In this document: in pieces, positions 1 through 42,860 of the stretch | Layout of the letters: the number at the start of each line of letters is the position of its first letter | Position numbering within the stretch: the first letter of the stretch is position 1 | NCBI GenBank assembly: GCA_036172245.1 | Contig: JAYWIR010000092.1 | Span: 1 to 64,000 of the forward strand | Direction of reading: 5' to 3' | Origin: Raillietiella orientalis | Taxonomy: Eukaryota | DNA length: 64,000 bases | The notes under the pieces: model-generated | Told to the model about the DNA's origin: nothing | What the model saw: only the letters and a program-made list of their open reading frames with translations | The model's database searches: none | Position numbers and translations under genes: made by a program

Positions 1-2618
1 GCCCATCTGGTTGCAGGCGATTTCAACGTTCGCCTGAAACCAGATGGGCAGAATCCCGAGCGTGACCTGGTCAACGAGGTGTGCATGGCGGTGCACACCA
101 GTAATTTGTTGGCCAGTGCACCGGAGATGGTAGACAGCATTGAGCACGTGTTTCTTGACGAGCACCTGTGCCCTCGCCTGGGCAAGCGCGGCAACTTACC
201 GTGTGAGCAGTCGGACCTTCACTTGCTAGTCCTCAAGATCCATCTCCGCGACAGGGGCCCTCCCTCTTCAGCGTGGCGTCTCCCAGGGGACTGATTGAAG
301 CTCCCGGACGCGGCGAAACATCACCGCACGTTCATACAGAGCTTCAGGCTGCGGACACTCCAGGATTGGGACCGCTTCAAGCGGTGGTCCAGAAGTTCTG
401 GGACCAGTTCCCTCTGCACCGTCTACCTACGGGTTTCGGGACCGAAGTCCGTAACGAACGAGCATACCTGCAGGTCCGTCGTTACACCAGGACCCCCGAC
501 ATCCGCAGGCTGGCAAAATACAAAGCGGGAGCCAAAAGGCAAGCCTGGCAGACCGGATCGGCCAGGTTACTGGACGATCAGGACCAGGAGCACTCGGCAC
601 CTGCCCAAATCCGCGGCCTGCTGCAGTGTTACTGCTCCTCCCTGTATGCCAAGGCACCTCCAAGGAGAAACGTCTCACGACTCCTGCTTCCGGAAGGCGC
701 TTCATCGATCAGGGAGGAGCACAGAAAGACCCTCGACGAGACTTTCACGTTGGACGAAATCCTCTCGGCCATCGGAAAGCACAAGAGGCGAAAGGCTCCA
801 GGGGAGGACGGCCTGCTTGCGGAGTTTTATCAAACTTTTGCGGCTGATCATACTACCCTGGTACAGCAACTCATCTTGCTGATACTCAAAACAGGTGACC
901 TTCCCGTCTCGTTACGTTCGGTAATGGTGCGGCTCCTCCCTAAGGGAGGTAATCTGACTAGCATGAACAACTGGCGTCCCACCACAATAGTGAATGTGGA
1001 CGCCAAGTTGATAGCTAAGATTTGGGCAGAGCGCCTGAGACGGGTTGCCAACATCTTCATCTGCCCAGCAGAGACATATGCTGTTCCCGGGCGAAGCATG
1101 GAGGCGAACCTGTTCCACGCTTCCACCTTGCTAGAGCTCCAACATGGAAGGAGCTTGGTGCGCAGCCGAAATCCCGGTGAGTGCGCCGGCAAAGGGTTGT
1201 ATGGTCGGTTGGGGGAGAAAGCTCTTGCGGTCGCAATCGACTTGCGGAAAGCATTCGATTGCGTCGACCAGAATCTTCTTCTGGAGCTTCTGGAACGCTT
1301 GGGCTTCCCGGCCTCATTAGTGGCCTATCTGCGCTCCTGCTGGCGCGGCGCTCTCATCAACGTTACTTCCAGCGGGCAGATCCTGCACGGCGTTCCGTCG
1401 CGGCGTGAGATCTGGCAGGGAGACAGCCTGAGCCCCTTGTCTTCAGTACCTATTTTGAGTTGGTACTGAGAGTGTACAGGGGAACTCTGGCTCACCTGCC
1501 GCACGAATGTGCCGGTACGCCGGCCGTTTCAGCGTACGCAAACAACCTTCTGCTGCTGCTCCCTGAGTCCAACTCGGCTTCGGCGGTCGAGGAGTTCTTC
1601 GACCTGCTGCATCGGGGAACCCGACTTACGGTGAACAGGGCGAAGTCGTCCGTGATGCCAGTTGGTGCGGCGTGGGCAGGGCAGCAGGACTGGGTCCGTT
1701 TGGGGATCCCCACGGTGAGGTACTTTAAGTACCTTGGTGTGCCGTTAGGAAACTACTCCCTTGCGGAAGCGTGGACCGGCTGCCTCCAGAAAGTAGAGAC
1801 GGCGATCGGCCGGTTCCGAGGCGGCATGTTTTTCCTGCCTGAACGGGCCGCGGTTTGGAACACGTTTGTGACTCCTCTCCTCCGCCCTCAGCTTTTTGTT
1901 TGCCCCTTCATAGAGAAAATTAAAAGCGGACAAAGGACCTCCTCCGTATCGCCCTTTGGGGCAACGGAAGGGCCCGATTCCGCTCAAAGGACTTGTGCGC
2001 TCCTCGTCGGGATGGTGGTCTGGGCCTCCTGACGCTGGAGCGGCTGGATCTTCAGCTCCAGTTCCGATTGCGGCACTCGTTCCAGAGTTGTGGTACACCT
2101 GGTGCGTCCCTGCACGTCTCCTTCTCCAGCAAGCAAGCGGCAAGAAGATACTAACTTCGTTTCTTGCAATCCGTCGCCGCGTCAACAGATGCGGTCTCCA
2201 GCTACGGAGGGTGGCTGCGCTGGATCGCAAAAAACCAGGATTGCTCACCTGTCGCTTTTTGATCGATAGTGCGTGGTTGCAGAAAACCGTTCGAAGGCGA
2301 GGACAGTTAGGCATGCAACGCTCCCAACAAAAACGAAGGTTCCTGTTTGGGGGTTACAGAAGTTGCACGCTCCGCGAGATTCTGGAGGATCCAAAGAAGA
2401 GAGCGTGGGCAGGAAGAACCCCCCTCGCTGCTGCGCTGCCCTCCCTGATGGAAGATCTGAACAGCGATGATGCGGCGAAGTGGGTGGTTACAGTAACAAT
2501 CTCCAGATAGGAGAACAAGAAAGGAGCGTTTAAGACGAGCCAGTTAACAGACGCTGCGACCCCGAGTACGCCTCCCAATGGACTTTTGCCCTGGGGAGCG
2601 CTGCTCGATGTTTCCATT
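1..2618 (+). pseudogene. Family A LINE ORF2 fragment (APE C-terminus, RT), frameshifted, cut before the zinc finger
   Basis: AHLVAGDFN at window start; ORF 273-1469 has NWRPTT, KAFD, QGDSLSP; ORF 1460-2032 has YANN (decayed YADD) and KYLG; homology switches to family B APE at ~2619. Confidence 0.9.
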
Positions 2619-5600
2619 GAACACAGGAACGGACGGCTAACGAGTTGTGCGTTGCCATGCGCATGCGCGACTTGTTAGGGGATATTTCGGAAATGGTCAG
2701 CAGCATCGACCACGTCTTCCTGGATGTCGACCTGTGTTCACGAATCGGCAAACGGGGGAAAGTTGCGTCGGAGCTGTCCGACCATTTCCGGTTGATATTC
2801 GAGGTGTGCCCGCGTGACAAGGGCCCCCCATCCAGGGCGTGGCGTCTGCCTGGGGACTGGACGCGACTCTCAGGTGCGAAGGAACACCTTCGCGAATTCC
2901 TGAGAGGCGTCACCCTCCGCAATCTCAATGATTGGGACCTTTTCAAGGCCTCGGTCCGCGAGTTTTGCGAGGAGTTCCCCTTGCACCTCCTGCCCCGGGG
3001 ATTTGGGGAGGGCATCCGTAACGAACGAGCGTACTTGTATGCCCGTCGTTACGCGAGGACCGCCAATGTCCGTCGCCTGGCAGAGTACCGAGCCGGGGCC
3101 GAACGTCAAGCCTGGCAATCCGGATCGGCCAGCTTGCTGGACGACCAGGGCCGGGAGCACTCGGCTCCGGCTAGAATACGGCACCTCGTGCGGCGTTTTT
3201 ATTCCTCCCTTTACGCCAGGGCGCCCCCGGACCAAGATGCCTCTCGGCGCTTGCTTCCGAACGGTGCCCCGGCAATAGGGGAGGAGGAGAAGGAAAGCCT
3301 CGACGAGCCTTTTACCACCGGCGAAATTCTCGCCGGTATCAAAAGGCTCAAGAGGCGGAAAGCACCAGGAAAGAACGGCCTGCCTGCGGAGTTTTTGCAA
3401 TGCTTCGTGGCAGAGTTGGCACCCCTGGTGCTTGAGTTTACAAGGCTGATCCGAGATGAAGACGATGTACCCGCCTCGTTTCGGTCAGCCAGAGTGAAGC
3501 TCCTTCGGAAAGGAGGAGACCTCAGGAAACTCAGCAACTGGCGTCCGATCACAATTATGAACACGGACGCCAAGCTGATCGCCGGACTGTGGGCTTCGCG
3601 TCTGGGGCAGGTGGCCAATTCCATAATTAGCCCGGAGCAGACTTACGCTGTTCCCGGGCGAAGTATGGATGCCAACCTGTTCTTCGCGAGCACATGGTTT
3701 CATGTGCGAAGTAGTCAAGAAAAGGAAGAGGGAAGGATTCGCAGCTTCGCTTTGGGAGCGTTAGCCGGGCAGGGACAGGACTCCCAGGTGGGGAAGGGAG
3801 CACTAGCGATCGCAGTCGATCTGCACAAAGCGTTTGACTGCGTGGACCAGGATCTCCTGCTGGAGCTCCTGGGACGCATGGGCTTCCCTCCCTCCCTACT
3901 GACCTACCTGCGCTCTTGCTGGCGCAGCGCGCTGATCAACATCTCTTTCAGAGGTCAAATGGCGTACGGCGTGCCGGTACGGCGGGGCATACGGCAGGGC
4001 GACAGCCTCAGTCCCCTGCTCTTTAGCACCTACTTTGAGTTGGTGCTGAGAGCGTACAGGGTGACTTTGGCCCCCTTGCCGAGCTCGTGCCCCGGCACGC
4101 CCGCCGTAGCAGCATACGCCGACGATCTTTTGCTTCTGTTGCCGATGTCAACCCCGGCGAAGGCGGTCGGGGATTTCTTCGATCTGCTTAGCCGCGGGAC
4201 CGGACTTACGGTGAACAGGGCGAAGTCGACGGTGGTTCCAGTCGGTGCGGCGTGAGCTGTGCAGCAGGACTGGGTCTGCTTGGGGATCCCCACGGCGAGG
4301 TGCTTGAAGTACCTTGGTGTGCCGTTGGGGGACTACTCCCCTGCGGAAGCGTGGTCCGGCTGCCTCCAAAAAGTGGAAACGGCGATCGGCCCGTTCCTGG
4401 AAGACAAGTTTCTCCTTCCGGAACGGGCCGCGGTATGGAACGCGTTCGCGGCTCCTATCCTCCGCCCCCTGCTTTTTGTTTGCCCCGTCCCCAGAGAGTT
4501 GAAAAAACGGACGAAGGACCTCCTGAGAATTGCGCTTTGGGGAAGAGGGAGGCCCCGAGTCTCGTTGAAGGACTTGTGTGCTCCACGTCGGGATGGCGGT
4601 CTCGGCCTCTTGGCGATGGAGCGAGTAGAGATTCAGCTGCGATGGCGAACTCTCGTCATCGCAGCGAAGTTATGCAGCACCCCTTGGTGCGTTCCGGCCC
4701 GACTGCTTGCCAGCCGTGTATCCGGGACGGAGAGTCTAGCGTCCTATCTTCTTTGCCGTGGCAGAAAGGTCAAGAGATTCGGACTTCTTCTGGGACGCAT
4801 GGCAACCCTGGCTAAGGAAAACGGCTGGATGGTATGCAGCCCCTCCAACTCTTCCGCATGGCTGGAGGAGACAGCTGGCACGTGGGCGAAGATTAATGAA
4901 AAAAATGAAGAAATATGGAACTGCCTGCGACGCGGCTCCTATTCCCGCTGCACTCTGCAGAAGATACTCCAGTATCCCGCGAGAAGCACGTGGGCAGAGA
5001 CAACCCCCCTAGCAACGGCGATGCACTTCCTCAGGAGGGCGCTCTCCAGCAGCCGCAAGCATAAGTGGCAAGTCTCCTGCCGCATCGCAGGCAAGGAGAA
5101 GTTGATCAACGGCTGGTCCACGGGTGAACTGGCGGACGTCAGTACCCCTAGTGTCCAGCCGAGAGCACTTACGAGATGGGGCGAGCTACTCGGCATCCAG
5201 ACGGATGACCTGAAGTGGCCCCCGGTATTAATTGGATCTAGGAACCTCCCCCTGAAGTGGCAGGAGTCGGCGCTTCTGTTGTTGCATTGGGGTCTAACCT
5301 GCAACGCACGCCGCCACCACTGGACCAGGGGTCGAGTAGATCCTACCTGCATCAGGTGTGGGGAACGGGAAATTCTCTCCCACCTCCTTGTTGATTGTGC
5401 TGCCATCCGACCCCTGTGGGAACGTCTTCGTGCCTCCCTACGGATCCAGGAGGGCAGCCAGCCGAGAGACGTTTTTCGGCTTCTGTTCGTGCATGATGCC
5501 CTGCGTGAAGCCGCTGCCCTGGCTGCACTTTGCTGCGTACGCGGGATTGTGACGTGCTGGAGCAACGTTAGAAGACCGAGCCACGACAGGGATGCCGTCG

Positions 5601-5918
5601 TACTTGCAGTCCGCTACCTGCGGATTGTGACCAGATGGCCCCACCTGGGGATTATACGAACGGACCTCGAGGGCATCCTGCGAAGGATGGACCCTCCTCC
5701 AAGTGGTCAGTGATCCCTCCCCAACCCTCCCAAATCTTTTTGTTTTTATGTTTATTTTTCTTTTTGTTTTTCCCCCAACCCCTTCCTCTGCCGAGGAGAG
5801 TCGCGCCGGTCTGAGTACCGGCGACCCGGCAGGTCCAGTTGAGTTGGACGTAGTAAGGCCTCGTACAACGAATAAAAGAGAAATCTTAATAAACGCCCCG
5901 GCGTGACCGGGTGGCAAC
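2619..5918 (+). mobile_element. Family B LINE, 5'-truncated within APE, with complete 3' end
   Basis: ORF2 remnant, then T-rich 3' UTR, stem-loop and AATAAA (5888) plus terminal hairpin. Confidence 0.93.
2645..5713 (+). pseudogene. ORF2 (APE C-terminal part, RT, CCHC finger) with a single in-frame TGA at 4253-4255
   Basis: ORFs 2645-4255 and 4259-5713 share a frame; IDHV, SDH, YADD, KYLG, CIRCGEREILSHLLVDC. Confidence 0.93.
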
Positions 5919-8900
5919 CAGCAACTTGGCGTCCCCATTCACTATTGTGATAGGACGCCAGTTGTTCATGCTCTTCAGAGTTCATTTTTTCCCTTAGGGA
6001 GGAGCCGCAACTTTGCCGAACGAAACGAGGCGGGAACGTCGCCTGTTTCGCGTATCAGCAAGGTGAGTTGCTGTACCAGGGGGGTAAGCTCAGCCGCGAA
6101 AGTTTAATAAAACTCCGCGGGCAGGCCGTCCTCCACTGGAGCCTTTCGCCTCTTGAGCTATCTGATGGCCGAGAGGATCTCGTCCATTGTGAAAGGCTCG
6201 TCGTGGTTCTTTGTCTGCTCCTCCCCGATCGCTGGAGCGCCTTACGGAAGCAGGAGTCGTGAGACGTTCCTCTCCTGAGGTGCCCTGGCATACAGGGAGG
6301 AGCAGTAACACCGCTTCAGGCTGCGGATTTGGGCAGGTGCCGAGTGCTCCTGGCCCTCATCGTCCAGTAAGCTGGCCGATCCGGACTGCCAGGCCTGCCT
6401 TTCGGCTCCCACTTTGTATTCCGCCAGCCTGCGGATGTCGGGGGTCCTGGCGTAGCGACATGCCTGCAGGTAGGCTCTTTCGTTACGGATCCCGGTCCCA
6501 AAACCCGAAGGTAGGCGCTGCAGAGGGAACTGGTCGCAGAACTCCTGGACCGACCGCTTGAAGCGGTCCCAATCCTGGAGTGTCCGCAGCCTGATGCTCC
6601 GTATGAACGTGCCGAGATGTTCCGTCGCGTCCTGTAGCTTCAGCCAGTCTTCTGGGAGACGCCACGATGACAAAGGAGGGCCCCTGTCGCGCGGTTGGAT
6701 CTCAAGGACTAGCGGGCGATGGTCGGACAGCTCGAGCGGTAACTTGCCGCGCCTACCCACGCGAGGGCACAGGTGCTTGTCAAGAAACACGTGGTCAATG
6801 CTGTCTTCTATCCCCGCTGCACTGGCCAACAAATTACAGGTGTGCACCGCCATGCACACCTCGTTGAACAGGTCACGCTCGTGATTCTGCCCATCTGGAT
6901 TCAGGCGAACGTTGAAATCGCCTGCAACCAGATGGGCATTCCGCACGCCTGCTTCGGTCAGCCAGCCTCGCCGGAGGACAAGGAAAAACTTTCCTCGCCC
7001 TGCTGGTCATCAGGTCCGCGCCGCTCGCTGCGTACACGTTCGTGACGATCAGATCAATCGAGTCGGACCACCTGAGAGCCAGCTGGCCGACACGACCGTG
7101 ATCGTCGAACCGCACGCCCCGAGTTGCGGCCTCGACGGCTGGCCGAAGCAGGTAGGCGACACCGCAACTTTTCGCAATCCCACACCTGTACTATAGCCGC
7201 CCTCCGGAGATCCTTCCGATCTCTTGCGCTTGTTCTGCAGAGATCACGTGGATCTCCTGCAGAAGAGCAAGGTCGTAGGACTCGAGAAGGGCGGCCATGT
7301 CTCGTCTCCTGCCGGCGTCTGTCATGCCGTTCACGTTCCAAACGGCGATGCGCAGACGACGACGGGAGGAGATTCCCGGCATTACTGCTTGGAAGATTAA
7401 GGTGTGGGGGACCTGGCCTCTTGAGAGGCGGGCGGGATGTCCATGGGGGTTTCGGCCTTCTCAGGCACCTGAGGCAGCTGTTCGGCATCCACCCCCTTCA
7501 TTCCCTTCGTGTCCTTGCGTGGGAGTCTCTCGTGCGACGGGTCCCGAGAGTTTCCCACGATCATGGCACCCTTGCTTGCTGAAGCCATCTCTTCCCCTTT
7601 GACGGGGGAGACGAGCTTCCTAGGCTTTGTGGACTTACGTCCAGTCTTCTTGCGTGGTGCCGTGAAAACGGAGTCTGCGTTTCCGGCCTCCACCTCGGGG
7701 TCGGAAGTGGAGGACTCCTGAGGGGAGGCCGGACGCCTTACGGCCTTCTTGCCAGCCTTGGAGGGTTCTGGTTGCAACAAAGCTGCCAGCTCCTCCGCGG
7801 CTCGCGCGAAGGCTGCGTCATCGATGGTGGTGTCAATGATGGTTGCCGCCGCCGGCACGCTCCCCTCGCTGTTGACAGTGTCAACAGAGGCGAGGTCGTC
7901 GGTAGCGGCGAGTTCTTTCCGGCAGCGTTCGGCAACATAGAGAACGCGTTCGACAACGACGCTGCACTCTTTAATTATCGCGCTACCCTGCTCTTTCTTC
8001 GTCTGTTGGTAGGCGATTTTCTTTTCCATCGTCCTCTCCTTCTTTGATTTTTTGCCCGTTGCCACTTGCCACCCTGTCTCCTGGCCGACTTTCTCAAGTT
8101 CTTAGGCGTTGGTCGCCGGGATCTCGGGTGCGGCCTGGGTCTTGGGCGCGGGTGGCACAGCCTTCGCGGCAGCTTTCGCCGCCAGTCTTTTCTGCAGAAG
8201 CCGGGCGCGTTTTTTAAGGTTTCTCTTGGAAACCACCCGCACTGCTGCTTTTGGGCACACCTCCCTCGTGTGGCCCATTGTGCCGCATACTTGGCACTGC
8301 ACATTGGGACACCTCTTTTTGAGGTGGTCCGACGTATTGCAGAAGCCACAGTATTTCGGCTTCCCCACATACCAGAGGTTGACGATTTCGCCTTCGACCA
8401 CCAGTTTGTGGGGAAGAGTGCAGCCTCCCGAACGGTCACGCGCGCAGCAGTGAGGCCGTGTTGCAGCCCCGTGTAGTTCTCGAAAGGACTAACTTTCGTC
8501 CACTGCGCGTGGACCGTTCCAAACTGTTCCAAAGCGGCGCGAACCTGTTCTTTGCGCATTCGCGCGGTCACGCCTAACAGGTGGACCACCATACTGCGGT
8601 CCGCCGTAATAGGGAGGAGCCTGCGCGTCTTCATCACTACGGGGGTTTTAAGCAGTCGTTGGGCCACCTCTGCTTGTTTGCAGATGACCTCAACGTACTG
8701 ACCGCCGCTGCGGATGGTCATAGCGCTGAGCTCCTTCTCTTTCACATCGAGTGCGCGCATGCCCTTAGAGAAGGCGCAGGCGCTCTCTAAGGAATATAAA
8801 TTGCCTACCTTGTAGAACAATAAGGGGTTGTACCCCTGCTCTACATCGGCCGACAATTCCGCGGCGGCTACAGGCGATGGCGCCGACACAACGGCTCTCC

Positions 8901-9150
8901 ACGCCGGCGCTGCAGCGGGGACCGATTCTGTGGGGGCGGATGCCCCCAGCTCCATCGCCTCTGGGAGCGACGTTGCCGTCGCCCCCTGGCTCTTTATCGC
9001 CTCTGGGGGCGGCGTTGCTGCTGCATCCTAGCCATCCCTGGTGGTCGCGTCAGGCATCGCTGCCTGATCGAGCACCGAACCACACGACGCTTGCACTGGG
9101 GGAGACTTCCTGGCACGAGGAGCACCGAGCAAACACGTCCCCCCTCGAGC
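5919..9150 (-). mobile_element. Family A LINE with its 5' end, decayed ORF1 (start ~9057) and ORF2 (start 7382) ending at RT motif DAKLL
   Basis: CGFCNTSDHLKKRC and CQVCGTMGHTREVC knuckles; WNVNG, QEIH, GDFN, SDH; 5' motif GGGGACGTGTTT at 9131-9142. Confidence 0.92.
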
Positions 9151-9510
9151 GCACAAGGCGTTCGACTTTGTAAACCAGAAGCTGCTTTTGGAGCTTATGG
9201 AACACCTTGAGTTCCCGGCGCAACTCCTGCTGTATTTGCGCGCTTGCTGGCGTCACGCGCTAACCCGCATCACTTCCAGCGGCTGCCGCGTGTATGGTAT
9301 TCTTGTTCGTTGGGGCATCCGAGAGGGCGACAGCTTAAGCCCGTTGCTCTTCAGGATCTTATTGGAGTTGGTGCTAAGTTCATACAGGCTGACGCTGTCT
9401 CACTTGCCGAGCTCCTGCCCAGGAACGCCTCCCGTGGCCGCCTACGCTGATTACCTGCTTCTCCTGCTCCCCATGTCCACCCCGGCGTCCAGTGTCGAGG
9501 ATTTCTTCAA
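9151..9510 (+). pseudogene. Family C RT fragment from HKAFD to just after YADY
   Basis: ORF 9188-9631 has GIREGDSLSPLLF and AAYADYLLLL. Confidence 0.88.
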
Positions 9511-11704
9511 CCGGCCTTGCCGTACTCAGCGGAAGGCAACGCGTGGAGATCGTCTGCAAAGACGTAGCCCTAGCGCAGCGCCTCATCAACACCCCGCTGA
9601 ATGTGGCTGGCTGAATGATCCTACCCGTTAGCATGGACCGCTCCGTAGTGGTCCATCTAATGGGGATCACGAATCGCATGACGCGCTCTGCGGTGAACGC
9701 GGAATTAAAGAAATACGGAGATGTGCACGCGCTGTGGCCAAAGCCAACCATTTTTGACGGCTATAACAGCCTCTTTGGTGGCCAGGCAGCAGCGCGTGTC
9801 ACTGTGAACGAGGGTGCTGGGTTACCTCACAAACTGGAGGTCGGGAAGGAGCCCGTCGACCTCTGGTACGTGCGGAAACCCCGCTATTGTGGCTACTGCG
9901 ATGCAGTAGGGCATGTGCGCAGGCGGTGCCCAAATATCTAGTGCCACTAGTGCGGGGAAAAGGGACACGTCCGTCGTGTGTGCCTCAAACGCCCCACCCC
10001 GGTGCCACCTGCTGCCAAAAAGGCCTCATCGCGCGAATGGCCGGCCCCAGCAGCCTTCTCCTCCTCCTCCAACCCAGGCGGCAGCGGAAAAAACCGCGAA
10101 AGACGCGTGCGAGGAAGAAGGATGGACGCTGGTAAAGGCCAGAAAAAAAACCCAAAAAGGGATCACAAGAGAAGCCGGAGAAAAAGCCGGTCGCGAAGGC
10201 GAAAAAACCAGGTCCGCGATCTAAAACTCTCCGCGAGAGCTCGGTAGCACTGGAGCGCATCAGCGTTCCCGAGGCTGCCACCCGGGGCGAAGAGCCTCCC
10301 CTTGCCGTTTCCGCCGCGCCAGAGGTTCGCGAAGGCGAACCCTCTGTTTGCACAGAGGGTGAGACGCGCGACGCGCTCGCCGCCGGCGAGGACGCCGCCT
10401 TCGCGAAGGCGGCGGAGGAGCTCGCGGCCACGCTGGCTGAGCGTGAGAACCCCTCACACAAAACCGTGCGAAGGCCCCCGCAGGTGAGTGCGACCTGGGG
10501 GCCGGAAGTGCATGCTCCTCCTCGGAGGCACCCCCCCGGAAGACGGGACGCAAGTCCCAAAAGCCCAGGAAGCGCCTCCCCTCCACGAGCGAGGAGGAGA
10601 AGCAGGAAGTCGCCGGCAGCGTGGGAATCCCGGAGGGGAAGCTCCCACGCGCGGAAGCCGTCGAGCAGGACACCCCCATGGAGGAGGGTGAGCAGGGGGG
10701 CGAAATCTCCCCTGCCGTCGCGGACCCTGAGGAGCACACCCCTATGGAGGAGGGCCAGCAGGTAGGCGCGACCCCATCTGAGGGTGAACCGCCCGACGCG
10801 CCGTCACCGATGGAAGAGGGTGCCCAGGTGCTAGAGGCACCTGTCCCTCCTCCTCCACCTAGCGTCCCGCCCTAACAGGTGGCGGACGCCGCACAGCCGA
10901 TTTCCCAGGAATAACACCTGGGCTCGTCTGTCGCCGTCGAATCCGCGTGGCCAGTTGGAACGTCAACGGGCTACGCGACCACGGCAACAGACCAGATACG
11001 GCCGACACCCTGCGTGAGTTCGACCTGGCCCAGATGCAGGAGATCCGCGTGATCACCTCGGCAGACGTCCAGGAGATCGAGACGGTCGCGGGGGGTCGAC
11101 TGTACTGGCAATGCGGCGCCCGCAACACCTGCGGGGTCGCGTTCTTCGTCAAGCCGGCCATCGACGCTGCCGTGAAGGGCGTACGCTTTGATGGCGACGG
11201 TCGGGTCGTTCAGCTGATTCTCAGCTGGTCCGACTCGATCGAATTGATCGTCACGAACGTGTACGCCCCGAGCGGAAAAGGGGGATACAGCGACCGTACC
11301 AGGCTGCTGGAAACCCTGAAGCGCGATTGGCTGGCCGACACGAATGTGCGGAAGGCACACCTGATAGCTGGAGACTTCAATCTCCGTCTGCTGTCAGGTG
11401 AGCCCGAAGCACAAGAACGCATAGCCAACGAGTTGTGCGCTGCCATGCGCACGCGCAACTTGTTGGCAGACGCGGAGGGAATGGACCGCAGCATCCTGGA
11501 TGTCGACCTGTGCTCGCGGGTCGGCAAACGGGGGAGGGTTGCGTCAACGTTGTCGGACCATTCCCGGTTAATTTTCGAGATGCGGCCTCGCGACAAAGGA
11601 CCGCCATCCAGGGACTGGCGTCTGCCAGGGGACTGGACGCGACTCTCAGGTGCGAAAGAACACCTTCGCGAATACCTGAGAGGCGTCACGCTCCGGAATC
11701 TCCA
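9511..11704 (+). mobile_element. Family B LINE, 5' half (5'-truncated ORF1 and APE), interrupted at 11704
   Basis: CGYCDAVGHVRRRC knuckle; ORF 10947-11708 has WNVNG, NVYAP, GDFN, SDH; reading frame continues at 17238. Confidence 0.92.
10677..10830 (+). repeat. Three imperfect ~66-nt coding repeats (PMEEG-x-Q) in the family B ORF1 tail
   Basis: TPMEEGEQ, TPMEEGQQ, SPMEEGAQ in ORF 10621-10875. Confidence 0.8.
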
Positions 11705-11917
11705 TTGAAACCCGGGTGCGCCGGGACGTTTATTCTCACGAATAAACTTATACAATCTGTGACTGGACCAGTAGTCCAGCCACGCCCTGGAAAGATATAG
11801 CCTGCCGGGCTACCGGTGCGCAGACCGGCGCAGTCGACCTCGGCAGCAGAGTTGAGGGGGAACGAAACAAAAAGAAAACAAAAAATAAACAAAAATCAGG
11901 GAGGGAGCGGGAAGGGA

Positions 11918-14900
11918 TCACAGTCTGCTGGGAGGGTCCGTCATCCTCTGGAGGATGCCGGCAAGCTGTTTCTGCTTGTGTGGTTCCAGATGGGGCCATC
12001 GCGTCGCCATCCTGAGGAAACGGGCAGCATACACGTTGGCATCCCTGTCGCTGGATCCTTCCGTCGCTTTGCTCCATGCCACGACGATCCCGCGTAGGCA
12101 GCACAGGGCTGCAAGCGAGGCCGCTGGAGGCAGGGCGTCACGGACGAAGAGGGAGCGCAAAGCGTCTCTGGGGTTGCCTCCGGGCATCCCCAGGGCTGCG
12201 GCAAAGCGTTCCCATAAGGGACGGAGGGCAACACAATCCACTAAAAGGTGGGGGAGGGATTCACTCTCCCCGCACCTGACACAATTAGGGTTTACACCCT
12301 CCCGCGTCCAGTGGTGTCGGCGGGCGTTGCAAGGAAGCCCCCAATGCAACACCATCAGTGCCGACTGTTGCCACTTCATGGGGAGGGTGCGCGAGTCCAT
12401 GAGCACCGGAGGCCACTCGAGATGTTCCTCTGGAACATCCAGTAGCTCTCCCTAGCGCAAAAGTCCATTTGGGTTGGTCCTCGGGGTCGCAGCGTTGGTG
12501 AGCTGACCCGTTCTTGAATCCCCGATCTTCTTTGCCCTGCTGGCGATCTTCACAGTTACCTCCCATTGTGCCGCGACGTCGCTGCACAGATGTTCCCGTA
12601 GGGTAGGCAGTACCGCAGCAAGGGAGGTTGTTTGTGCCCACGCTCTCCTTCGGGAATTCTCGATGATTTCTCGGAGCGTGCGGCGGGCATGCGGCCCGAA
12701 CAGAGCTATTCGCTCGTGCTGCGGGCTCTGCTCCTGAATCATCGCCCACGTGCGGACGGTTTCCTGCAACCAGCCAGGACCGTTCGTGAGGCGTACGAGG
12801 ATCCGCGCCGAGTTGTTCTTCACGAGCTTGGCCGCCCTCCGAAGTTGAAGTCCGCAGTGGCAGATGGGGCTTCGGAGTGCAAAGTAGGACGAGAGTCCCG
12901 CATTGCCGGTGGCCCGCTCGACGAGGAGACGTGCAGGCAGGCACCAAGGGGTGCACCAATTTCCTGCCATAAAGGCAACAACTCGGAACTGGAGCTGTAG
13001 CTCCAGCCGCTCCAACGTCAGGAGGCCCAGACCACCATCCCCACGAGGAGCGCACAAGTCCGATAGACGGACTCGGGGCCTCCCTCTGCCCCAAAGGGCG
13101 ATCCTCAGGAGGTCCTTCGTCCTCTTCTTTGACTCCGCTGAGGGGGGGCAAACAAAAAGCAAGGGGCGAAGGAGGGGGGCCGCAAACGCGTTTCACGCCG
13201 CGGCCCGTTCCTGCAGGTAGAACCTGCCGTCCTGGAACGGGTCGATCGCCGCCTGAGCCTTCTGAAGGCAGCCGGACCACGCTTCCGCAGGGGAGTAATC
13301 CCCCAACGGCACACCAAGGTACTTGAAGTACCTCACCGTAAGGATCCCCAAACGGACCTAGTCCTGCTGCCCTGCCCACGCCGCTCCGACTGGCATTACG
13401 GACGACTTCGCCCTGTTCACCGTCAGTCCTGTTCCACGACTCAGCAGGTCGAAGAAGTCCTCGACCGCCGAGGCCGGGGTGGACATAGGCAGCAGCAGCA
13501 GAAGGTCGTCCGCGTACGCCGAAACCGCAGGCGTACCGGGGTAATCGCACGGCAGGTGCGCAAGAGTCTCCCTGTACGCTCTCAGCACCAATTCGAAAAG
13601 GCGCTAAAGAGCAGGGGGCTCAGGCTGTCTCCCTGCCGTATGCCGCGTCGCACCGGTACTCCGTGCACGGTTTGCCCGCTGAAAAGAACATTAATGAGCG
13701 CGTCGCGCCAGCTGGAGCGCAGGTAGGCCAACAAAGAGGCCGGGAAGCCCAAGCGTTCCAGAAGCTCCAGGAGGAGATTCTGGTCGACGCTGTCGAATGC
13801 TTTACGCAAGTCGACAGCGACCGCAAGGGCTCCCTTCCCCACCCAACCGTTCCGTCTCCCGCCAACGGACGCACCGGAATTCCGGCTGCTCAATAAGCCC
13901 CTTCCTTGTTGGAGCTCTAACCATGTGGAAGCGTGGAACAGGTTCGCCTCCATGCTCCGCCCGGGAACAGCATAAGTCTGTTCCGGGCTGATGAAGATGT
14001 TGGCGACCCGTCCCAGGCGCTCTGCCCACATCTTGGCTAGCAACTTGGCGTCCGCATTCACTATTGTGATGGGACGCCAGTTGTTCATGCTCCTTAGGTC
14101 TCCTCCCTTCAACAGGAGCCGCACCTTTGCTGAACGAAACGAATTGGGAACGTCACCTGTTTCACGGATCAGCAAGGTGAGCTGATGTACCAGGGGAGTA
14201 AGCTCAGTTGCGAAAGTTTGGTAAAACTCCGCGGGCAGGCCGTCCTCCCCTGGAGCCTTCAGCCTCTTGAGCTTTCCGATGGCCGAGAGGATCTCGTCCA
14301 TCGTGAAAGGCTCGTCGAGGCTTCTTTTCTCCTCCTCCCCGATCGCTGGAGCACCTTCCGGAAGCAGAAGTCGTGAGACGTCTCGCTCCGGAGGCGCCCT
14401 GGCGTACAGGGAGGAGTAAAATTTCCTTACTATCCCGCGTTTCTGAGCAGGAACCGAGTGCTCCCGGCCCTGGTCGTCCAGCAAGCTGGCCGATCCGGAT
14501 TGCCAGGCTTGCCTCTCGGCTCCCGCTCGGTACTCTGCTAACCTGCGCATGTCGGGGGTTCTCGCGTAACGTCGGGCCTGAAGATAGCACCTTTCGTTAC
14601 GCGGCCCCTCCCCCAAACCCGCAGGTAGGCGATGCAGGGGGAACTGATCGCAGAACTCCTGGACGGACCGCTTGAAGCGGTCCCAGTCCTGAAGTGTCTG
14701 CATCCTGAAGCTCCGAATAAACGCGCGGAGGTGCTCCGCCGAGTCGGGAAACTTCAGCCAGTCCCCTGGCAGACGCCACGCTGACGTGGGGGCCCCTTGT
14801 CGCGCGGACGCACTTCGAACATAATCCGACCATGGTCCGACAGCTCGGATGGTACCTTGCCGCGCCTGCCCACCCGACAGCATAGGTGCTGATCAAGGTA

Positions 14901-15497
14901 CACGTGATCGGTGCTGCTTTCCATGGCCGTGTCCCCGGCCAACAAGTTGCGCGTGTTCATTTCTGCGCACAACTCGTTGACGCCGTCGTTCAGTGTTTCC
15001 GGCGCACCTGAAAGCAGGCGCAGGTTGAAATCACCTGCGATCAGGTGCGCTTTGCGAACTCCTGCATCGGTCAGCCAATCGCGTCTTAGGGCAAGGTAGA
15101 ATTCCCTTCTTGCCTTCGCCTTCAACGCGTTATTTCCGCTAGGAGCGTAGAGGTTGGTGACGACCAGGTCGATAGAGTCGCACGAGCTGAGAGTCAGCTG
15201 ACCGACGCGACCTGCGTCATCGAACCGAACGTCCTTTATTGCGGTGTCGATGGCTGGCCGAAGAAGGAAGGCGACACCGCTTGATTTCGCGGTGCCGCAA
15301 CGCCACAACAGCCGCCCACCCGAGATCCGTTCGATCTCCCGGGCTTGATCTGCGGAGATCACGTGGATCTCCTGCAGCAGCACCAGGTCGAAGGATGCCA
15401 GGGGGGCGGCCACGTCACGCCTCTTGCCGTCGTCGCTTAGCCCGTTCACGTTCCAACAGGCGATCAGAAGACGACGGCGAGAGGCGATTCCCGGCAT
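11918..15497 (-). pseudogene. LINE ORF2 (APE, RT, CCHC finger), ~1190 codons, with frameshifts and stops
   Basis: Pieces 14754-15497 (APE), 13582-14883 (RT), 13358-13591 (YADD), 12452-13162, 11918-12406 (CVRCGESESLPHLLVDC). Confidence 0.93.
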
Positions 15498-17155
15498 TAT
15501 GGCTGGGAAAGTGGCGTCGCGGCACCTGCCGCGGGGCAGGTGTACGAAAGGTCCATCGGTACGAGGACCATCGGAACGAGGACGGAGGCCTCTTCAGGCG
15601 CCTGGGGTACCTGTTCGGCCTCCATCCTCACCATCCTTTCCGTGTCCGAGCGTGGAATTCTCTCGGGCGACGGGTCCCGGGAGTTTCCCACGCTCATGGC
15701 ACCCTCGCTACCGGAAGCCATCTCTTCCCCTTCGTCGGGGGAGACGATCTTCCGGGGCATTGTGGACTTTCGTCCTGCCTTTTTGCGGGGTGCCGCGGAG
15801 ATCGATGCTGTGTTTCCGGCCTTCACCTCGGGGTCGGAAGTGGCCGACTCCTGAGGGGAAGCCGGACGCCTGACGGCCTTCTTGCCAGCCTTGGGGGCAA
15901 CCGGCTGCAACGAGGCAGCCAGCTCCTCCGCGGCGCGCTCGAAGGCGGCGTCATCGAGCGTGGGCTCGAAGACGGACGCCGCCGCCTCGCTTCCCTCCTT
16001 GTTGACTTTGTCAACGGAGGGTTGAGCAGGGGCAGCAGCGAGTTCTTTAGCGCCGCATTCGTCGATGGCGGGAATCCGCTCTACAACGACGCAGCAGATT
16101 TTAATTTTATCGCGGCGCAGAGCGGTTTCGCTCCGTTTCGCCACGTTCTTTCCCTTCTTATGGGAGTTTTTCTTGGGGTCGACCTTCTGCCACCCTGGCT
16201 CTTGATCCTCGCCCTCGACCTTTTCGGCGTCTTTCGCCGAAGTCTCGGGGCTGGCCTTCGCCTTGGTGGCGGAGGTGACCTCCTTAGCAGCAGCACGAGC
16301 TGCCAGCTTTTTTCTCTTTTTTGCCGCGCGCTTTCTCGCGTTTTTCGCGGACACGACGCGGACTGTGTTTTGGGGGCACACCAGACGGGTGTGCCCCGCT
16401 TGTTTGCATTGCTGGCACTGCACGCTCGGACACCTCATTTTAAGGTGACCAAAGCTGCTGCAGCAGCCGCAAAACTTGGGTTTCTCCACGTACCACACGT
16501 CAACGGATTCACCGTTGACGGTGAGTTTGTGGGGAATCTCACATCCCTCGCGAACCGTCACTCGCGCTGCACCCAGGCCGCCAAGTAACCCGTCGTAATC
16601 GACAAAAGGAGTAGGCTTGCCCCACAGCGCGTGGACAGTTGCGAATTTTTCCAATTCGTTCCGGACGGCCTCCTTCGTCATCCGGAACGTGATACCGGTC
16701 TGGTGAATGATCACCGACCGGTCTTCAGTTATTGGGAGAAGCCTCCGGCTGCCCATACTTACGGGGGTTCGCAGAAGTCTCTGCGCAAGAGTTGCCTCCT
16801 TGCAGATAACTTGCACAAATTGACCCCCGCTTCTGACGGACATAGCCAGAAGCTCCTCTTTCTGTACGCCGAGAACGCGCATCGCCTGTGAGAAGGCGCG
16901 CGCGTTCTCGGGAGAATATAGACCGCCTACCTTATATAGAAGGGGTGGGTTATACCCCTCCTCCAGGTAAGCGCGCATTTCCGCCATAGCCGCTGACGTA
17001 GGTGCCGCAGCCACGGCGTTCCAAGCCCTGGGTAGGGCCGGGGGCGCATCCGTGCTGGCGGGAGCCTCCAGTGATGCGGGAGCTCCCACCTCCATCTGCT
17101 TCAAGGGCAATGAGGTCATCGTTCCCGGATCCTCACCGGTGGTGGTATCAGGCAT
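15497..17155 (-). CDS. LINE ORF1 (gag-like nucleic-acid-binding protein, two CCHC knuckles), intact, 552 aa
   Basis: Uninterrupted ORF with CGCCSSFGHLKMRC and CQQCKQAGHTRLVC followed by a basic and low-complexity tail; its stop overlaps the ORF2 ATG. Confidence 0.9.
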   Translation of the reverse strand: MPDTTTGEDPGTMTSLPLKQMEVGAPASLEAPASTDAPPALPRAWNAVAAAPTSAAMAEMRAYLEEGYNPPLLYKVGGLYSPENARAFSQAMRVLGVQKEELLAMSVRSGGQFVQVICKEATLAQRLLRTPVSMGSRRLLPITEDRSVIIHQTGITFRMTKEAVRNELEKFATVHALWGKPTPFVDYDGLLGGLGAARVTVREGCEIPHKLTVNGESVDVWYVEKPKFCGCCSSFGHLKMRCPSVQCQQCKQAGHTRLVCPQNTVRVVSAKNARKRAAKKRKKLAARAAAKEVTSATKAKASPETSAKDAEKVEGEDQEPGWQKVDPKKNSHKKGKNVAKRSETALRRDKIKICCVVVERIPAIDECGAKELAAAPAQPSVDKVNKEGSEAAASVFEPTLDDAAFERAAEELAASLQPVAPKAGKKAVRRPASPQESATSDPEVKAGNTASISAAPRKKAGRKSTMPRKIVSPDEGEEMASGSEGAMSVGNSRDPSPERIPRSDTERMVRMEAEQVPQAPEEASVLVPMVLVPMDLSYTCPAAGAATPLSQP

Positions 17156-17237
17156 TTCTGCCTAATCCTCCACCCACACCACGCAAGAGCACCAACGGAA
17201 ATGGAACTCAGGAGCAACGAAAAGGCACGTCCGCTCG

Positions 17238-20200
17238 ACGCTCCGCAGTCTCCAAGACTGGGACCTCTTCAAGGCCTCGGTCCGCGAGTTCTGCGAGGAG
17301 TTTCCCCTTCACCGCCTGCCCCCCGGATTCGGGGAGGGGGCTCGGAACCATCGGGCCTATCTACAGATCCGCCGGTACGAGAGGACCCCGAATGTCCGTC
17401 GCCTCGCGGAATATCGAGCCGGGGACGAACGCCAAGCCTGGAAATCCGGGTCGGCCAACTTGCTGGACGACCAGGGCCGGGAGCGATCCGCCCCACCCGC
17501 GATCAGGCACCTCGTGCGACGTTACTACTCCTCCCTCTACGCTAGGGCACCCCCAGAGCAAAACGCTTCGCGGTTCCTGCTCCCGGATGGAGCCCCGGCA
17601 ATAGGGAAGGAGGAGAAGATCAGCCTCGACGAGCCTTTTTCTACCGGTGAAATCCTCGCCGGTATTAAAAGGCTCAAGAGGCGAAAGGCGCCAGGGGAGG
17701 ACGGCCTGCCTGCGGACTTTTTTCAATGCTTCCCGACAGAGCTGGCCCCCCTGGTGCTCCAGTTGACCGGGCTGATCCGAGACGAAGGCGACGTTCCCGC
17801 CTCGTCTCGGTCAGCCCGTGTGAGGCTCCCCCCGAATTGAGGAGACCTGAGATCCCTAGACAACTGGCGTCCGATCACAATTGTGAATACGGACGCCAGG
17901 CTGATCGCTGGACTGCGGGCTTTGCGTCTAGGACAGGTGACAGACTCCATAATTAGCCCGGAGCAGACATACGCTGTTCCCGGGCAAAGTATGGATGCCA
18001 ACCTGTTCTTCGCGAGCACATGGTTCCATGTGCAACGCTGCCTGAATGAAACTGGCGTAAAGATTGGCAACCCAACTTTGGGGCCGCCAGCTGGGCTGGG
18101 AATGGACACCCGGGCTGGGAAGGGGGCCCTAGCGATCGCGGTCGATCTCCATAAGGCGTTCGACTGCGTTGACTAGGAGCTACTGTTGGAGCTCCTGGGT
18201 CGCATGGGCTTCCCACCCTCCCTTCTCTCCAACCTGCGCTCATGCTGGCGCAACGCCATAATTAACATCTGCTTTTCCAGCCAACAGGTGTACGGCGTGC
18301 CGGTACGGCGGGGCATACGGCAGGGCGATAGCCTCAGTCCCCTGCTCTTCAGCACCTACTTTGAGTTGGTGCTGAGAGCGTACAGGGTAAGTTTGGCTGC
18401 CCTGCCCAGCTCGTGCTCCGGTACGCCCGCCGTAGCAGCATACGCCGACGACCTTCTGCTCATGTTGCCCATGTCCGCTCCGGCAGCCGCAGTCGAGGAT
18501 TTCTTCGACCTGCTAAGTCGTGGGACTGGACAGCGGGTAAACAAGGCGAAGTCGTCGGTCGTACCGGTGGGTGCGACGTGGGTCGGACGGCCTGACTGGA
18601 TCCGCTTGGGAATCCCCACGGCCAGGTACCTGAAGTACCTGGGTGTCCCGTTGGGGGACTTCTGCGTTGCAGAAGCCTGGTCAGGTCGTCTCCAGAAGGT
18701 AGAGTTGGCAATCGGCCCGTTCCTGGAAGGCAAGTTCCTTCTGCCGGAACGGGCCGCAGTTTAAAACGCCCTGGCGGCCCCCATCCTCCGCCCCTTGCTT
18801 TTTGTTTGCCCCGCCCCAGGAGTAGTTAAAAAGAGGATGAAGGACCTCCTCCGCATCGCCCTTTGGGGCAAGGGGAGGCCCCGAGTCTCTCTGCAGGACT
18901 TGTGCGCTCCGCGTCGGGACGGTGGTCTCGGCCTCCTCACGCTGGAGCGCCTGGACATACAGCTGCGATGGCGCACCCTCGCCATCGCAGCAAAGTCATG
19001 GAGCACCTCTTGTTGCGTTCCGGCCCGCATCCTCGCCAGCCGTGTGTCCAGGACGCAAGGACTCGCGTCGTACCTTCTGTGCTCTGGCAGGAAGGTCAGA
19101 AGATGCGGCCTTCTTCTTGGGCGCATGGAAGCCCTGGTGAGAGACAACGGCTGGACGGTATGCAGCCCCTTCAACTCCTCCGCCTTGCTGGAGGAATCCG
19201 TTGCGACGTGGGCCAAGCTGAACCTGCAGACTTCCCCGGACTGGAACCGCCTGCGTTTCGGCCCCAACGCCTGCTGCACACTGCGGACTACTCTGGAGTG
19301 TCCCGCCAGGAGCACGTGGGCGGAGACTACTTCCCTAGCTTCGACCCTGCCCTTCCTATGAAGGGCATTAACGAGCGCCCGCAAGCCAAAGTGGCAAGTC
19401 TCCTACCGAATAGCAGGCAAGGAAAAGAAGATGAGCGGTTGGACCATGGGAGAACTGGCAGATGCCACAACCCCGAGTGCCCTCCCTCGTGGACTTCGTC
19501 GATGGGGCGAGCTGCTCGGCATCCCGACGGATGACCTGAAGTGGCCCCCAATACTGATAGGATCCAGGCCTCTCCCCCTGAAGTGGCAAGTGTCGGCGCT
19601 GCTGCTGTTGCACTGGAATCTACCCTGCAACGCGCGCCGCTTCCACTGGACGCGATGGAGTGTAAGGCCTGAGTGTGCCAGGTGTAAGGAGCAGGAATCG
19701 CTCCCCCACCTACTAGTTGACTGTTCTGCCCTTTGACCCCTGTGGGAACGGTTCGGGACGACCTTCGGGCTCCCAACGGGCAGCGCGCCTAGAGAGGTTC
19801 TTCGGCCCCTCTTCGTGCGGGATGCCCTGCCTCACGCCGCAGCCCTCGCAGTTCTCTGCTGCATCCGGGGCATCGTGGCGGCATGGAGCGACATTCGCGA
19901 CGAAGGAGTGGATGCCAACGTGAGGGATGTCATCCCGTATGCGGTCTGCTTCATGCGGAGAGCAGCGAGATGGCCCCATCTGGGAAACATGAAGATGGAC
20001 CTAGAGGGCATCCTGAGAAGGATGGACCCTCCTCTAAGTAGAACGTGATCCCTTCCCCTCCCTCCAAACTCTTTTTTGTTTTCCTTATCTTTGTTTTTCT
20101 TTTTGTTTTGATCCCTATCCCCCTCCACTGCCGAGGAGCGTCACGCCGGGCTGCGTCCCGGCGTCCCGGCAGGTCCGGTGTTGTGTGGCCGTTAGTGGGA

Positions 20201-20262
20201 CCTTGTACCACGTTTATGTAGAGTTTTTTCAATAAACGCCCCGGGCGTACCTGGGTGACAAC
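17238..20262 (+). mobile_element. Family B LINE, 3' half (RT, zinc finger, 3' UTR); continuation of 9511-11704
   Basis: Resumes at LQDWD; YADD in ORF 18186-18764; CARCKEQESLPHLLVDC; AATAAA at 20231 plus hairpin. Confidence 0.92.
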
Positions 20263-20275
20263 CCCAACTCCCTTG

Positions 20276-34919: not shown

Positions 34920-35229
34920 GTCAGTGAAAAGCAACGACGACTTCTTCCTATCTGGGAGCTATGACGAGGGACCTCGAGGGCATACTAGAGAGGATGGTCC
35001 CCTCCTCCAGCGGGCTATGATCCCTTCCCGGCCCTCCAAATATTTCCTTTCTGTTATTTCATTTATTTTTCTTTTTGTTTTACCTTCTATCCCCTCCGCT
35101 GCCGAGGAGGACAAGCTGGCTTCAGAACCGGCTTCCTGGCAGGTTTCATGAAATATTTGCCGTAGCGGGACCTAGTACCGCAAATGTACAGTGTTTTTTA
35201 ATAAACGCCCCGACGTGATCGGATGAAAA
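34920..35229 (+). mobile_element. Very short 5'-truncated family B-like LINE (last codons and 3' UTR)
   Basis: DLEGILERM, TGATCCC, CTGCCGAGGAG stem, AATAAA at 35200 plus hairpin. Confidence 0.85.
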
Positions 35230-40439: not shown

Positions 40440-42522
40440 CATAAGGCGTTCCACTGCGTGGACTAGGTACTTTTCCTAAGCCTCCAGGATTGTATGAGCT
40501 TCCCACCCTCCTTACTGACCTTACTGCGAACTTGCTGACGCATTGCTATAATTTACGTTAGTTTTAGCTGTCAAATGGTGTACGGCATATCGGTCCGTCG
40601 GGGCATACGGCAGGGCGACGTCCTGATTGCCCTGCTCTTTAGCACCTACTTCCAGTTGATGCTGAGAGCTTACAGGGCGACTTAGGATGCCTTGCCGAGC
40701 TCGTGCACCGGTACGCCCACCGTATCCGAGTGCGCCGATAATCTTTAGCTCTTGTTGCCTATGTACTCGTCGTCAGCCGCAGTCGTGGACTTCTTCCATT
40801 TGCTGAGCCGTGGGACTGGACTGTGGGTGAACAGTTCAATGTTGTCGGTGATGACAGTTGGTGCGACGTTAGATGGACGGCTTGACTGGATCCGATTGGG
40901 AATTCCTACGGCTAGGTATCTGGAGTAACTTAGCGTCCCGTTGGAGAACTTCTGCCTCGTGGAAGCCTGGTCAGGTGGTCTCCGAAAAGTAGAGTTGGCG
41001 ATCGGTCCCTTCTTTGAATACAAGTATCTCCTTCCGGAACGGGCCGCGGTGTGAAACGCTTTCGCAACTCTCAACCTACCCCCCTGCTTTTGTTTGCCTC
41101 GTACCTCCCCAGTTGGAAAAACGAACAAAGGACCTCCTAAGAATTGCCTTTTGGGAAAGAGGTGAACCCTGACTTCCTTTGAAAAACTTGTGTGCTCCGC
41201 GTCGTGATGGCGGTCTCGGCCTCTTGACGCTGGAGAGAATGGAGATCCAGCTGCGAAGGCGCAGAATGAGTATCGCAGGGAAGTTATGGAGCACCCATTG
41301 GTATGTTGCGGCCTTCGTCTTGCCAGCCGTGTATCCGGGACTCCAGGATTCGCGTCAAATTTTTTGTGACATTGCCGCAATTTTCAAAGTTGCGGCCTTC
41401 TCCTAGGACGCATGGCCACCCTGCCTAAGGAGAAAGGCTGGATGGTGGGCAGCCCCGCAAACTCCTGCGCATAGCAGATGGAGATTTCTGGCACGTGGAG
41501 GAAGATAAATGAGAAGAGAAGCAAGATGTGGAAACGCCTGTAACACCGAACCTACGCCCGTTGCACTCTGCGGAACATACTCTATTGTCCTGTGAGGAGC
41601 ACATGGGCAGGGACAACCCCCCTAACTACGGCGATGCCTTCCTGAGGAGGGCGTTTTCCAGCAGCAGCATGCCTATGTGGTAAGTCTACTGCCGTATCGC
41701 AGGCAGAGAAAAGCTGATGAGCGGTTGGACCATGGTTGAGCTGGTGGCTGACACGACCAGAATTGTCCTCTTGCGTGGACTTTTGAGATGGGGGGAGTTG
41801 TTCGGCATCCCGTCGGATGCCCTCATGTGTTCGTCGGTTTTTATTGGTTCGAAGATTCTTCCCCTGGAGTGGCAGGAGTCGGCGCTTCTGTTGTTGCATT
41901 GGGGTCTACCCTGCAACCCGCAGCACCACCAGTGTGCACGGGGTAGAGTGAATTTTGCCTGCATCAGGTGTGGGGAATGGGAATCCCTCTCCCCACCTCC
42001 TCGTTGATTGTGTTGCTTTCCGACCTCTGTGGGTGAGCCTTGGTACCTTCCTACGGATCCAGGTAGGCAGCCATACCAGAGACATTTTGTGTCTCTTCGT
42101 GTAGGATGCCCTGCGTCCAGCCGCAGCCCTGACAGCACTCTGCTGTGTCCGAGGGATTGTTCCGTGCTGGATCGATGTTACAAGAACGAACCACTAGAAG
42201 GATGCCGTTGAACTTGCAGGCCACTACCCTCGGCTTGCGACCAGATGGCTCCAACTGCGAACTATAAGGGCGCACCTCGAAAGCATCTTGGAAAGGATGG
42301 ACCCTCCCTCCAGTGGACAGTGATTTCTTTCTCGCCCTCCCAGTTCTTTTTGTTTTTTCTTTTTCTTTTTTCCCCTATACCCGTCCGCTGTCCAGGAGAG
42401 TCACGCCGGTCTGCGTACCGGCGACCCGGCAGCTGCTGTAGTGTTGGTTGGCCGTAGTGGGCCCCTGTATCACAAATTATAGTGAATTTATAGTAAACAC
42501 ATAGGCGTGAACTGGTGGCAAC
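40440..42522 (+). mobile_element. Heavily decayed family B LINE from HKAF to the 3' end
   Basis: GIRQGD, LCAPRRDGGLGLL, WQESALLLLHWGLPCN, CIRCGE; 3' UTR stem at 42388-42432; ends GGTGGCAAC. Confidence 0.85.
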
Positions 42523-42860
42523 AAGTAAATTCGCTTCCGAATTCACTTCAATCATGGGACGCCAGTTGTCAACGTTGCGCAAGCCTCCTCCCTTGGGGAA
42601 GATACTTACTCTAACTGACCAGAATGAGTTGGGGACATTCCCACGTTCACGGACATACACAATTTGTACTTACAGAATTTGTGCACCAAGGGCACGAGCT
42701 CTGTCGCAAAGCATTGATGAAGTTCCTCTGGACGACCGTCTTCCCCTAATGACTTGTGTTTTTTTAATTTTAAGTAAACGGAGATTATCTCTGTCATCGT
42801 ATATTTGTGATGGAAGGTGTCAATTTTCTAGTCCCGGAGCGCGGGAGCACATTCATTCAG
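42523..42860 (-). pseudogene. Decayed RT N-terminal fragment
   Basis: KSLGEDGRPEELHQCF and PKGGGLRNVDNWRPMIEVNSEANLL. Confidence 0.78.

Follow-up and report, generated by a model that had tools for sequence, protein, structure and literature searches.

The first 64,000 nucleotides of contig JAYWIR010000092.1 from Raillietiella orientalis (the whole stretch analysed here, referred to as the window) hold, from position 1 to ~44000, a GC-rich island built of copies of long interspersed nuclear elements (LINEs) nested in each other. At two places in this island, 36 kb apart, the 3' end of one LINE is joined to the antisense reverse transcriptase (RT) gene of another LINE at exactly the same codon boundary. 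The GC content of the island is 0.53–0.63 per 2-kb bin, down to 0.49 at its right edge, and the background beside it, which has no long open reading frames (ORFs), lies at 0.42–0.49. Comparison of the window with itself by blastn gave 78 repeat pairs, nearly all of them among copies of one element group with identities of 65–90%. Using two of the copies, D and B1, as references in tblastn, together with blastn, we mapped ~24 LINE fragments in 1–44000, and two of the nestings are proven by target-site duplications (TSDs). Judged by its sequence, the island is a graveyard of nested L1-like LINE copies of the type that carries an apurinic/apyrimidinic endonuclease (APE).

The insert at the first junction (5905–5945) is B1 (2621–5918, plus strand), a 5'-truncated L1-like LINE that retains the end of the APE domain, the RT, a C-terminal CCHC region and a ~200-nt 3' untranslated region (UTR), and ends with AATAAA, a GC palindrome and TGGCAAC. 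The sole defect of its 1022-codon ORF is a TGA at 4253–4255 in place of the Trp codon (TGG) of its relatives (D reads ..GAAWAGQQD); because of this, B1 is judged to be a very recent copy, whose lineage is probably still active. Its upstream flank, A(+) (1–2620, plus strand), is an older copy of family A, 3'-truncated ~720 nt short of its end and joined to B1 at ~2621–2625 through a short GAACA-type microhomology, as seen by eye. On the other side the terminus of B1 lies against antisense CTG TTG AAG GCC GAC, the edge of A(-) (5919–9063, minus strand). This second family-A copy runs from its own 5' end (residue 1 of ORF1) to residue 286 of the RT piece and lacks its 3' 2.3 kb.

At the second junction the insert, B2 (40443–42522, plus strand), is the 3' 2.1 kb of an old and strongly decayed sister of B1 and also ends with TGGCAAC. 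It is cut off from S (39519–39899, plus strand; RT residues 243–366) by F (39900–40442, minus strand), a 5'-truncated LINE 3' fragment lying antisense. F is surrounded by a 9-bp TSD, AA(A/G)GCGTTC, at 39891–39899 and 40443–40451, which identifies S as the 5' part of the B2 element. B2 adjoins C(-) (42523 to ~42900, minus strand), a ~380-nt antisense RT piece (residue 286 back to 165) from a divergent old LINE, which stops at the second Leu codon of EANLL. Beyond it lie B3 (42901–43378, plus strand), a 3' fragment of the E/G subfamily that is 5'-truncated and has the tail GGCAAC, and T (43380–43999, minus strand), an antisense ORF1 piece (residues 322–109). C and T are both antisense and very divergent and are ordered as in one old element; they may be a single element of which ~2 kb was replaced by B3, in which case loss of the target on the 5' side of the insert may be usual in such events.

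The joint, its inserts and its targets

On the plus strand, the 64 kb contain the 9-mer GGTGGCAAC at two places only, 5910–5918 and 42514–42522. Read on the minus strand, 5933..5910 is GAC GCC AAG TTG CTG followed directly by GTTGCCACC, and 42537..42514 is GAA GCG AAT TTA CTT followed directly by GTTGCCACC; an earlier note on this DNA had likewise read DAKLL and EANLL as joined to an identical 3' end. That note placed the junctions at 5919 and 42523. The joints are real, but these two positions are the first bases of the targets, and the joints themselves are the bonds 5918/5919 and 42522/42523. The common codon boundary that it described is found by each approach. At both loci the first base past GGTGGCAAC is the start of the antisense second Leu codon of NWRPITIVNGDAKLL or NWRPMIEVNSEANLL, in the RT motif NWRP..D/E-A-K/N-L-L; in tblastn the target side is antisense RT ending at residue 286 of the reference RT piece both times; and MAFFT aligns the two loci across the joint without a gap. 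No other DNA of the RT region is as well conserved as the 46 nt adjoining the joint, and a blastn match passes through the joint. Since B3 (43369–43378) and E (20255–20263) end alike (..CAAC) against unrelated flanks, GGCAAC/ACAAC is the natural terminus of the element, neither transduced nor truncated.

A like joint is present in a public DNA run (X1), the sole DNA run listed, which is of low coverage and holds 7% of the sampled window words; no RNA sequencing run with sampled window words was listed. At 80% likeness, 470 X1 contigs were placed on 2000–10000. One of these (record 6, 271 nt) spans 5725–5969 with 43 differing letters and 5 gaps and bridges a joint of the same kind with 194 and 51 nt on its two sides. 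It may be the counterpart of one of the two loci or may represent a third event. Three other X1 contigs continue past 5922 into apparent RT coding sequence and represent empty sites. Ten LINE 3' junctions in the window have LINE-derived flanks (B1 with A, B2 with C, B3 with T, J with I, D with E, F with S, G with I, P with Q, K with L and E with G), which gives 45 pairs; with ~5,500 positions and 2 orientations, the probability that position and orientation coincide exactly under uniform insertion is ~0.004 by our own arithmetic. The joint is real and non-chance, and probably reflects a target preference.

B1 and B2 share 75.9% identity in their 3' 2.1 kb and come out as sisters in the tree (support 100/99, branches 0.087 and 0.25) inside a clade of B1, B2, E and G; forcing B1 together with E and G, with B2 left out, was rejected by the approximately unbiased (AU) test (p = 4e-5). 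The targets differ, as had been claimed: in the 370 nt of target that adjoin the joint, the identity of A(-) and C is only 54.9%. A(-) is 86–87% identical to A(+) and D and groups with both in the tree, and C stands alone on a branch of 0.61. A clade of A(-) and C is 9.4 log-likelihood units worse (p-AU 0.028), and the patristic distance is ~0.82 between the targets against ~0.34 between the inserts. Neither the alignment nor the tree, therefore, puts the two targets in one subfamily with a divergence equal to that of the inserts. The description of the second target as family C-like does not clearly hold, as C has no close relative in the window.

The two loci have also decayed to different extents. 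Stops and frame changes number 1 and 0 in B1 (977 aligned residues), 6 and 4 in A(-) (1075), and 14 and 4 in S and B2 together (648). The GC contents are 0.591 for B1, 0.596 for A(-), 0.536 for B2 and 0.459 for C, against a background of 0.446. These values fit an order in which C is the oldest, followed by B2, with the A(-)/B1 pair much younger; A(-) is placed before B1 because it is the more decayed of the two, and not from GC. Sister inserts, non-sister targets and unequal decay and GC together indicate that the joints were made at very different times and that each target is older than its own insert. On the trees, alignments and decay, then, these are two insertions, widely separated in time, of one sublineage at the same bond, and the independence of the two events proposed in the earlier note is upheld.

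Element group and other nestings

D (11705–17237, minus strand) is the most complete copy, with a 554-residue ORF1 containing Cys/His knuckles, an APE domain, an RT and a C-terminal Cys-rich region, and has 3 frame changes between the reference pieces. Its APE domain matches PF03372 (E 8.6e-14, 52.2 bits against a cut-off of 24.5) and the RT matches PF00078 at E 1.6e-21. The best solved structure for the RT is human LINE-1 ORF2p (E 4e-39), with R2 proteins at only E 1e-9 to 1e-14. The zf-RVT match in the C-terminal region of D, at 23.5 bits, is under the cut-off of 27.5, and by eye CX2C..H..C motifs can be made out in the translations; a Pfam search with ORF1 gave no match. Among 63 database proteins at E<=1e-3, one JGI protein is 69% identical. 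Those covering more than half of the query are ~22–32% identical and include L1-like proteins of Mucorales, fish and frog, which are also the nearest named proteins (28–30% identity). From these sequence comparisons, the window elements are assigned to the APE-type LINEs of the L1 superfamily, in a eukaryote that is poorly sampled.

Nine aligned 3' ends share AATAAA, the GC-rich palindrome and a short tail, TG(R)(M)AA(Y), and none of the nine has a poly(A) or A-rich tail; such tail-less ends resemble those of 'stringent' LINEs. For the 3' hairpin, RNAalifold found covariation support for none of 5 pairs. The older copies C, B3 and T, with a GC content of 0.46–0.49, have decayed toward the background. 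The observed/expected ratio of CpG is 0.8–1.0 over the whole window, with no sign of methylation-driven CpG loss.

D sits antisense in E between 17-bp TSDs, ACGCTCCG(G/C)A(A/G)TCTCCA, at 11688–11704 and 17238–17254, which shows the two parts of E (9513–11704 and 17238–20263) to be one element. Right at the 3' terminus of E (..GTGACAAC, 20255–20263), the nearly full-length G (20264–25913) starts with its 5' end, a head-to-tail tandem that could derive from a template jump or from one nick used again. As for what adjoins the 3' ends at 20263 and 43378, antisense RT ('LSKGVG' and 'SWRP') was considered, and tblastn identified instead the 5' region of G and antisense ORF1, respectively. G is followed by I (25914–26488), a 575-nt fragment of family A that is 90.8% identical to 7219–7763 and lies between the 3' termini of two other elements, that of G on the left and that of J (antisense, 26456–30413) on the right. 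One X1 contig contains a joint of the J/I type, passing from 5913 through AGAA to 7219. Outside the island, 54081–55058 is an isolated and very old antisense RT fragment with 27–55% amino acid identity to D and B1, in which the site, here DAKWL, is uninterrupted.

The 3' ends of two further LINEs, K (against L, 31696–31710) and P (against Q, 35222–35240), lie within the 'DFN' codons of an APE domain, ~6 nt apart. Here the targets are sense-oriented, L belonging to family A and Q to a distant one. This near-coincidence hints that conserved motifs in general may act as hot spots.

Origin of the joint

The explanation that we favour, with rather better than even confidence, is target-primed reverse transcription (TPRT) in which the sublineage of B1 and B2, in two separate events, used a nick at one preferred bond on the sense strand of an RT gene already resident there. 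Each event would have been primed on the sense strand of the resident LINE's RT gene at a single phosphodiester bond, directly after the second Leu codon of the NWRP..DAKLL block in RT domain 1. Priming on that strand puts the insert antisense to the target, and the joint at the natural 3' end of the insert. TPRT with TSDs is documented in this group of elements, by D in E (17 bp) and F in S/B2 (9 bp), and we infer that the shared joint had the same kind of origin. Its recurrence would then express a preference of the sublineage for a conserved sequence, and both members of the sublineage in the window (2/2) do use the DAKLL site. Such a preference might come from recognition by the endonuclease, or from read-through RNA of a progenitor lying in such a site, which could anneal to the conserved block containing AACTGGCGTCC.... 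In R1 elements, a read-through 3' flank is used for precise priming. The downstream part of the target would have been lost at both events, either by deletion on the 5' side of the insert or by later rearrangement.

A number of observations weigh against this explanation. There are two events only. The DAKLL-type site is used by just two of the ten LINE 3' junctions, and the window has 11 homologous sites, of which only two are occupied and nine are empty (in A(+), B1 itself, D, E, G, J, Q, S and, at 54.7 kb, the old fragment). B3, which has the same GGCAAC tail and groups with E and G, adjoins the antisense ORF1 piece T and not a DAKLL site, and the 3' ends of D, F, J, G, K, P and E are at other positions. 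Unlike D and F, neither B1 nor B2 is accompanied by a TSD or a second copy of the target words, and the downstream half of the target (the remainder of the RT after DAKLL) is absent beside either insert, with none to the left of S. Four inferred nick sites have no obvious consensus by eye. The endonuclease domain of B1 and B2 themselves is gone, with its last ~70 residues or none kept, because both are 5'-truncated. The idea of a guide RNA was rejected, as the complementarity between the B 3' UTR and its target scored 16 and 14 against shuffle means of ~16.

Nor were close copies found outside the window in the collections searched. Scanning with a degenerate pattern of the B 3' end gave 0 matches in metagenome contigs and 0 in genome contigs. 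A search with the RT alignment gave 126 metagenome relatives, from which 80 loci were kept, all of them distant (19–31% identity, with 42% over one short segment), and one distant locus in genome contigs; among 150 tblastn high-scoring segment pairs on the 80 metagenome loci, none ends near residue 286 or starts near residue 287. A protein search with the 132-residue ORF across the second junction yielded 3 candidates, none of them scored. The term 'site-specific' used in the earlier note goes further than the counts of junctions and sites in the window, the position of B3 and the lack of TSD and second target half allow. Strict site-specificity is not proven by the window data, and what they probably reflect is a preference.

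A bolder form of the favoured explanation, which we put forward only tentatively, is that B1 and B2 belong to a homing LINE, or hyperparasite, which targets the domain-1 NWRP..DAKLL block of other LINEs in antisense and thereby kills their RT. The target would have been kept while the host families turned over, from the old C type to the young A type. Read-through RNA from a copy in the site could anneal to the most conserved stretch of related RT genes, and re-use of the retained half-site could produce tandem 5'-truncated copies (A(+) and then B1) and so contribute to LINE-only islands. If true, a lineage aiming at the RT gene of its siblings or rivals would be a case of conflict between retrotransposons and would provide a concrete mechanism for the start and growth of LINE-only islands, such as the centromere-like clusters of the Zepp type. 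If the site is a hot spot only, the joint is nothing out of the ordinary in a transposon graveyard. The 46 nt by the joint, as an exact and conserved target, would allow a test in vitro.

The alternative that survives best, although we consider it unlikely, is non-canonical joining. LINE DNA would break at the site and the end be healed by priming of B cDNA, or the RT finishing B would jump to a LINE RNA or cDNA that had its end, perhaps through cleavage, at the conserved position; the joint would then recur because the target is fragile or cleaved there, and not because B prefers it. The missing TSDs and downstream target halves would be accounted for, and A(-) extends exactly to its own 5' end, residue 1 of ORF1. 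B3 also lacks a continuous target, with C and T looking like one element minus ~2 kb, and the head-to-tail arrangement of E and G at 20263/20264 resembles the product of a template jump. However, A(-) is clearly more decayed than B1, and so was resident before it rather than synthesised with it. Fragility of the target does not predict that both users of the site should be sisters, and the nine homologous sites of the window are intact, as are those in the three X1 contigs that continue through the site.

That a single ancestral joint was copied, by segmental duplication or by 3' transduction, leaving paralogous loci, is largely refuted and in our view improbable. It would explain why B1 and B2 are each other's closest relatives and why the joint is identical at both loci. 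A copied flank should, however, have diverged along with its insert, and the figures given above (54.9% against 75.9% identity, patristic distances of ~0.82 against ~0.34, AU p = 0.028) led us to reject both a 3' transduction and a duplicated composite. A(-) is 86–87% identical to other family-A copies, its antisense piece extends 3.1 kb to the 5' end of the element whereas that of C is 380 nt long and cut by B3, and the two loci differ sharply in decay and GC. Conversion of the flank by family A was also considered, and no C-like tract was seen beside the joint.

Nor do we give much credence to chance, by which two insertions in so dense a nest would coincide, perhaps aided by a weak nicking bias. 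The island does contain at least 10 LINE 3' junctions, and the second near-coincidence, of K/L and P/Q, suggests general hot spots at conserved motifs in place of a dedicated target; but an exact coincidence has a probability of ~0.004 under uniform insertion, and the two users of the site are sister elements. Chimeric joining of repeats during assembly is very improbable, for although the island is highly repetitive and the only run holds 7% of the sampled words, the joint is common to loci 36 kb apart that are 76% and 55% alike on its two sides, clean TSDs lie close by, and the independent run X1 has one contig bridging a like joint and another with the J/I joint. The joint is real and non-random, yet it rests on two events and one bridging contig.

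Comparison with known systems

The adjoining sense and antisense LINE segments recall the twin priming of L1, in which the inverted piece is made from the same RNA as the sense piece and is placed on its 5' side. Twin priming was rejected here, as the antisense piece is found past the 3' terminus, is of another family and predates the insert.

Target-specific LINEs are known for ribosomal DNA (rDNA), small nuclear RNA genes, telomeres, microsatellites and one DNA transposon. A small literature search, which is not proof of absence in print, found no LINE that targets the RT motif of another LINE. The APE lineages that are target-specific fall within the Tx1 and R1 clades, according to the excerpted text of one account (PMC4640811). 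Like members of these clades (Tx1L in the Tx1D transposon, R1 in 28S rDNA), the window elements are APE LINEs that end at a defined nucleotide of a multicopy target. Unlike them, the target is the RT motif of other LINEs, in antisense, with two copies, no TSD and many empty sites. The best named relatives are at most ~30% identical, and the likeness is not a placement in Tx1 as against L1 proper.

Zepp has a poly(A) tail, and in this the window elements differ from it. Excerpts of two accounts describe Zepp and ZeppL as forming LINE-only, GC-rich clusters of nested L1-clade elements in green algae (PMC3446292, PMC8226300). The island is likewise LINE-only, GC-rich (54–63% against 43–45% in the background) and made of nested elements, but the named homologues of its elements are not algal, and the same excerpts describe no fixed nucleotide target inside Zepp (PMC3446292, PMC8226300).

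A third parallel is with the RHS genes of trypanosomes, in which, in the excerpted part of the published description, the LINE/SINE (short interspersed nuclear element) pair ingi/RIME occupies one fixed coding site beside a conserved motif and leaves pseudogenes (PMC7563717). As far as that excerpt goes, the two systems have in common that a conserved motif adjoins the fixed site of insertion, which lies in coding sequence present in many copies. They differ in that RHS genes are host genes with both halves flanking the insert, whereas here the target is the RT gene of a LINE and its second half is missing.

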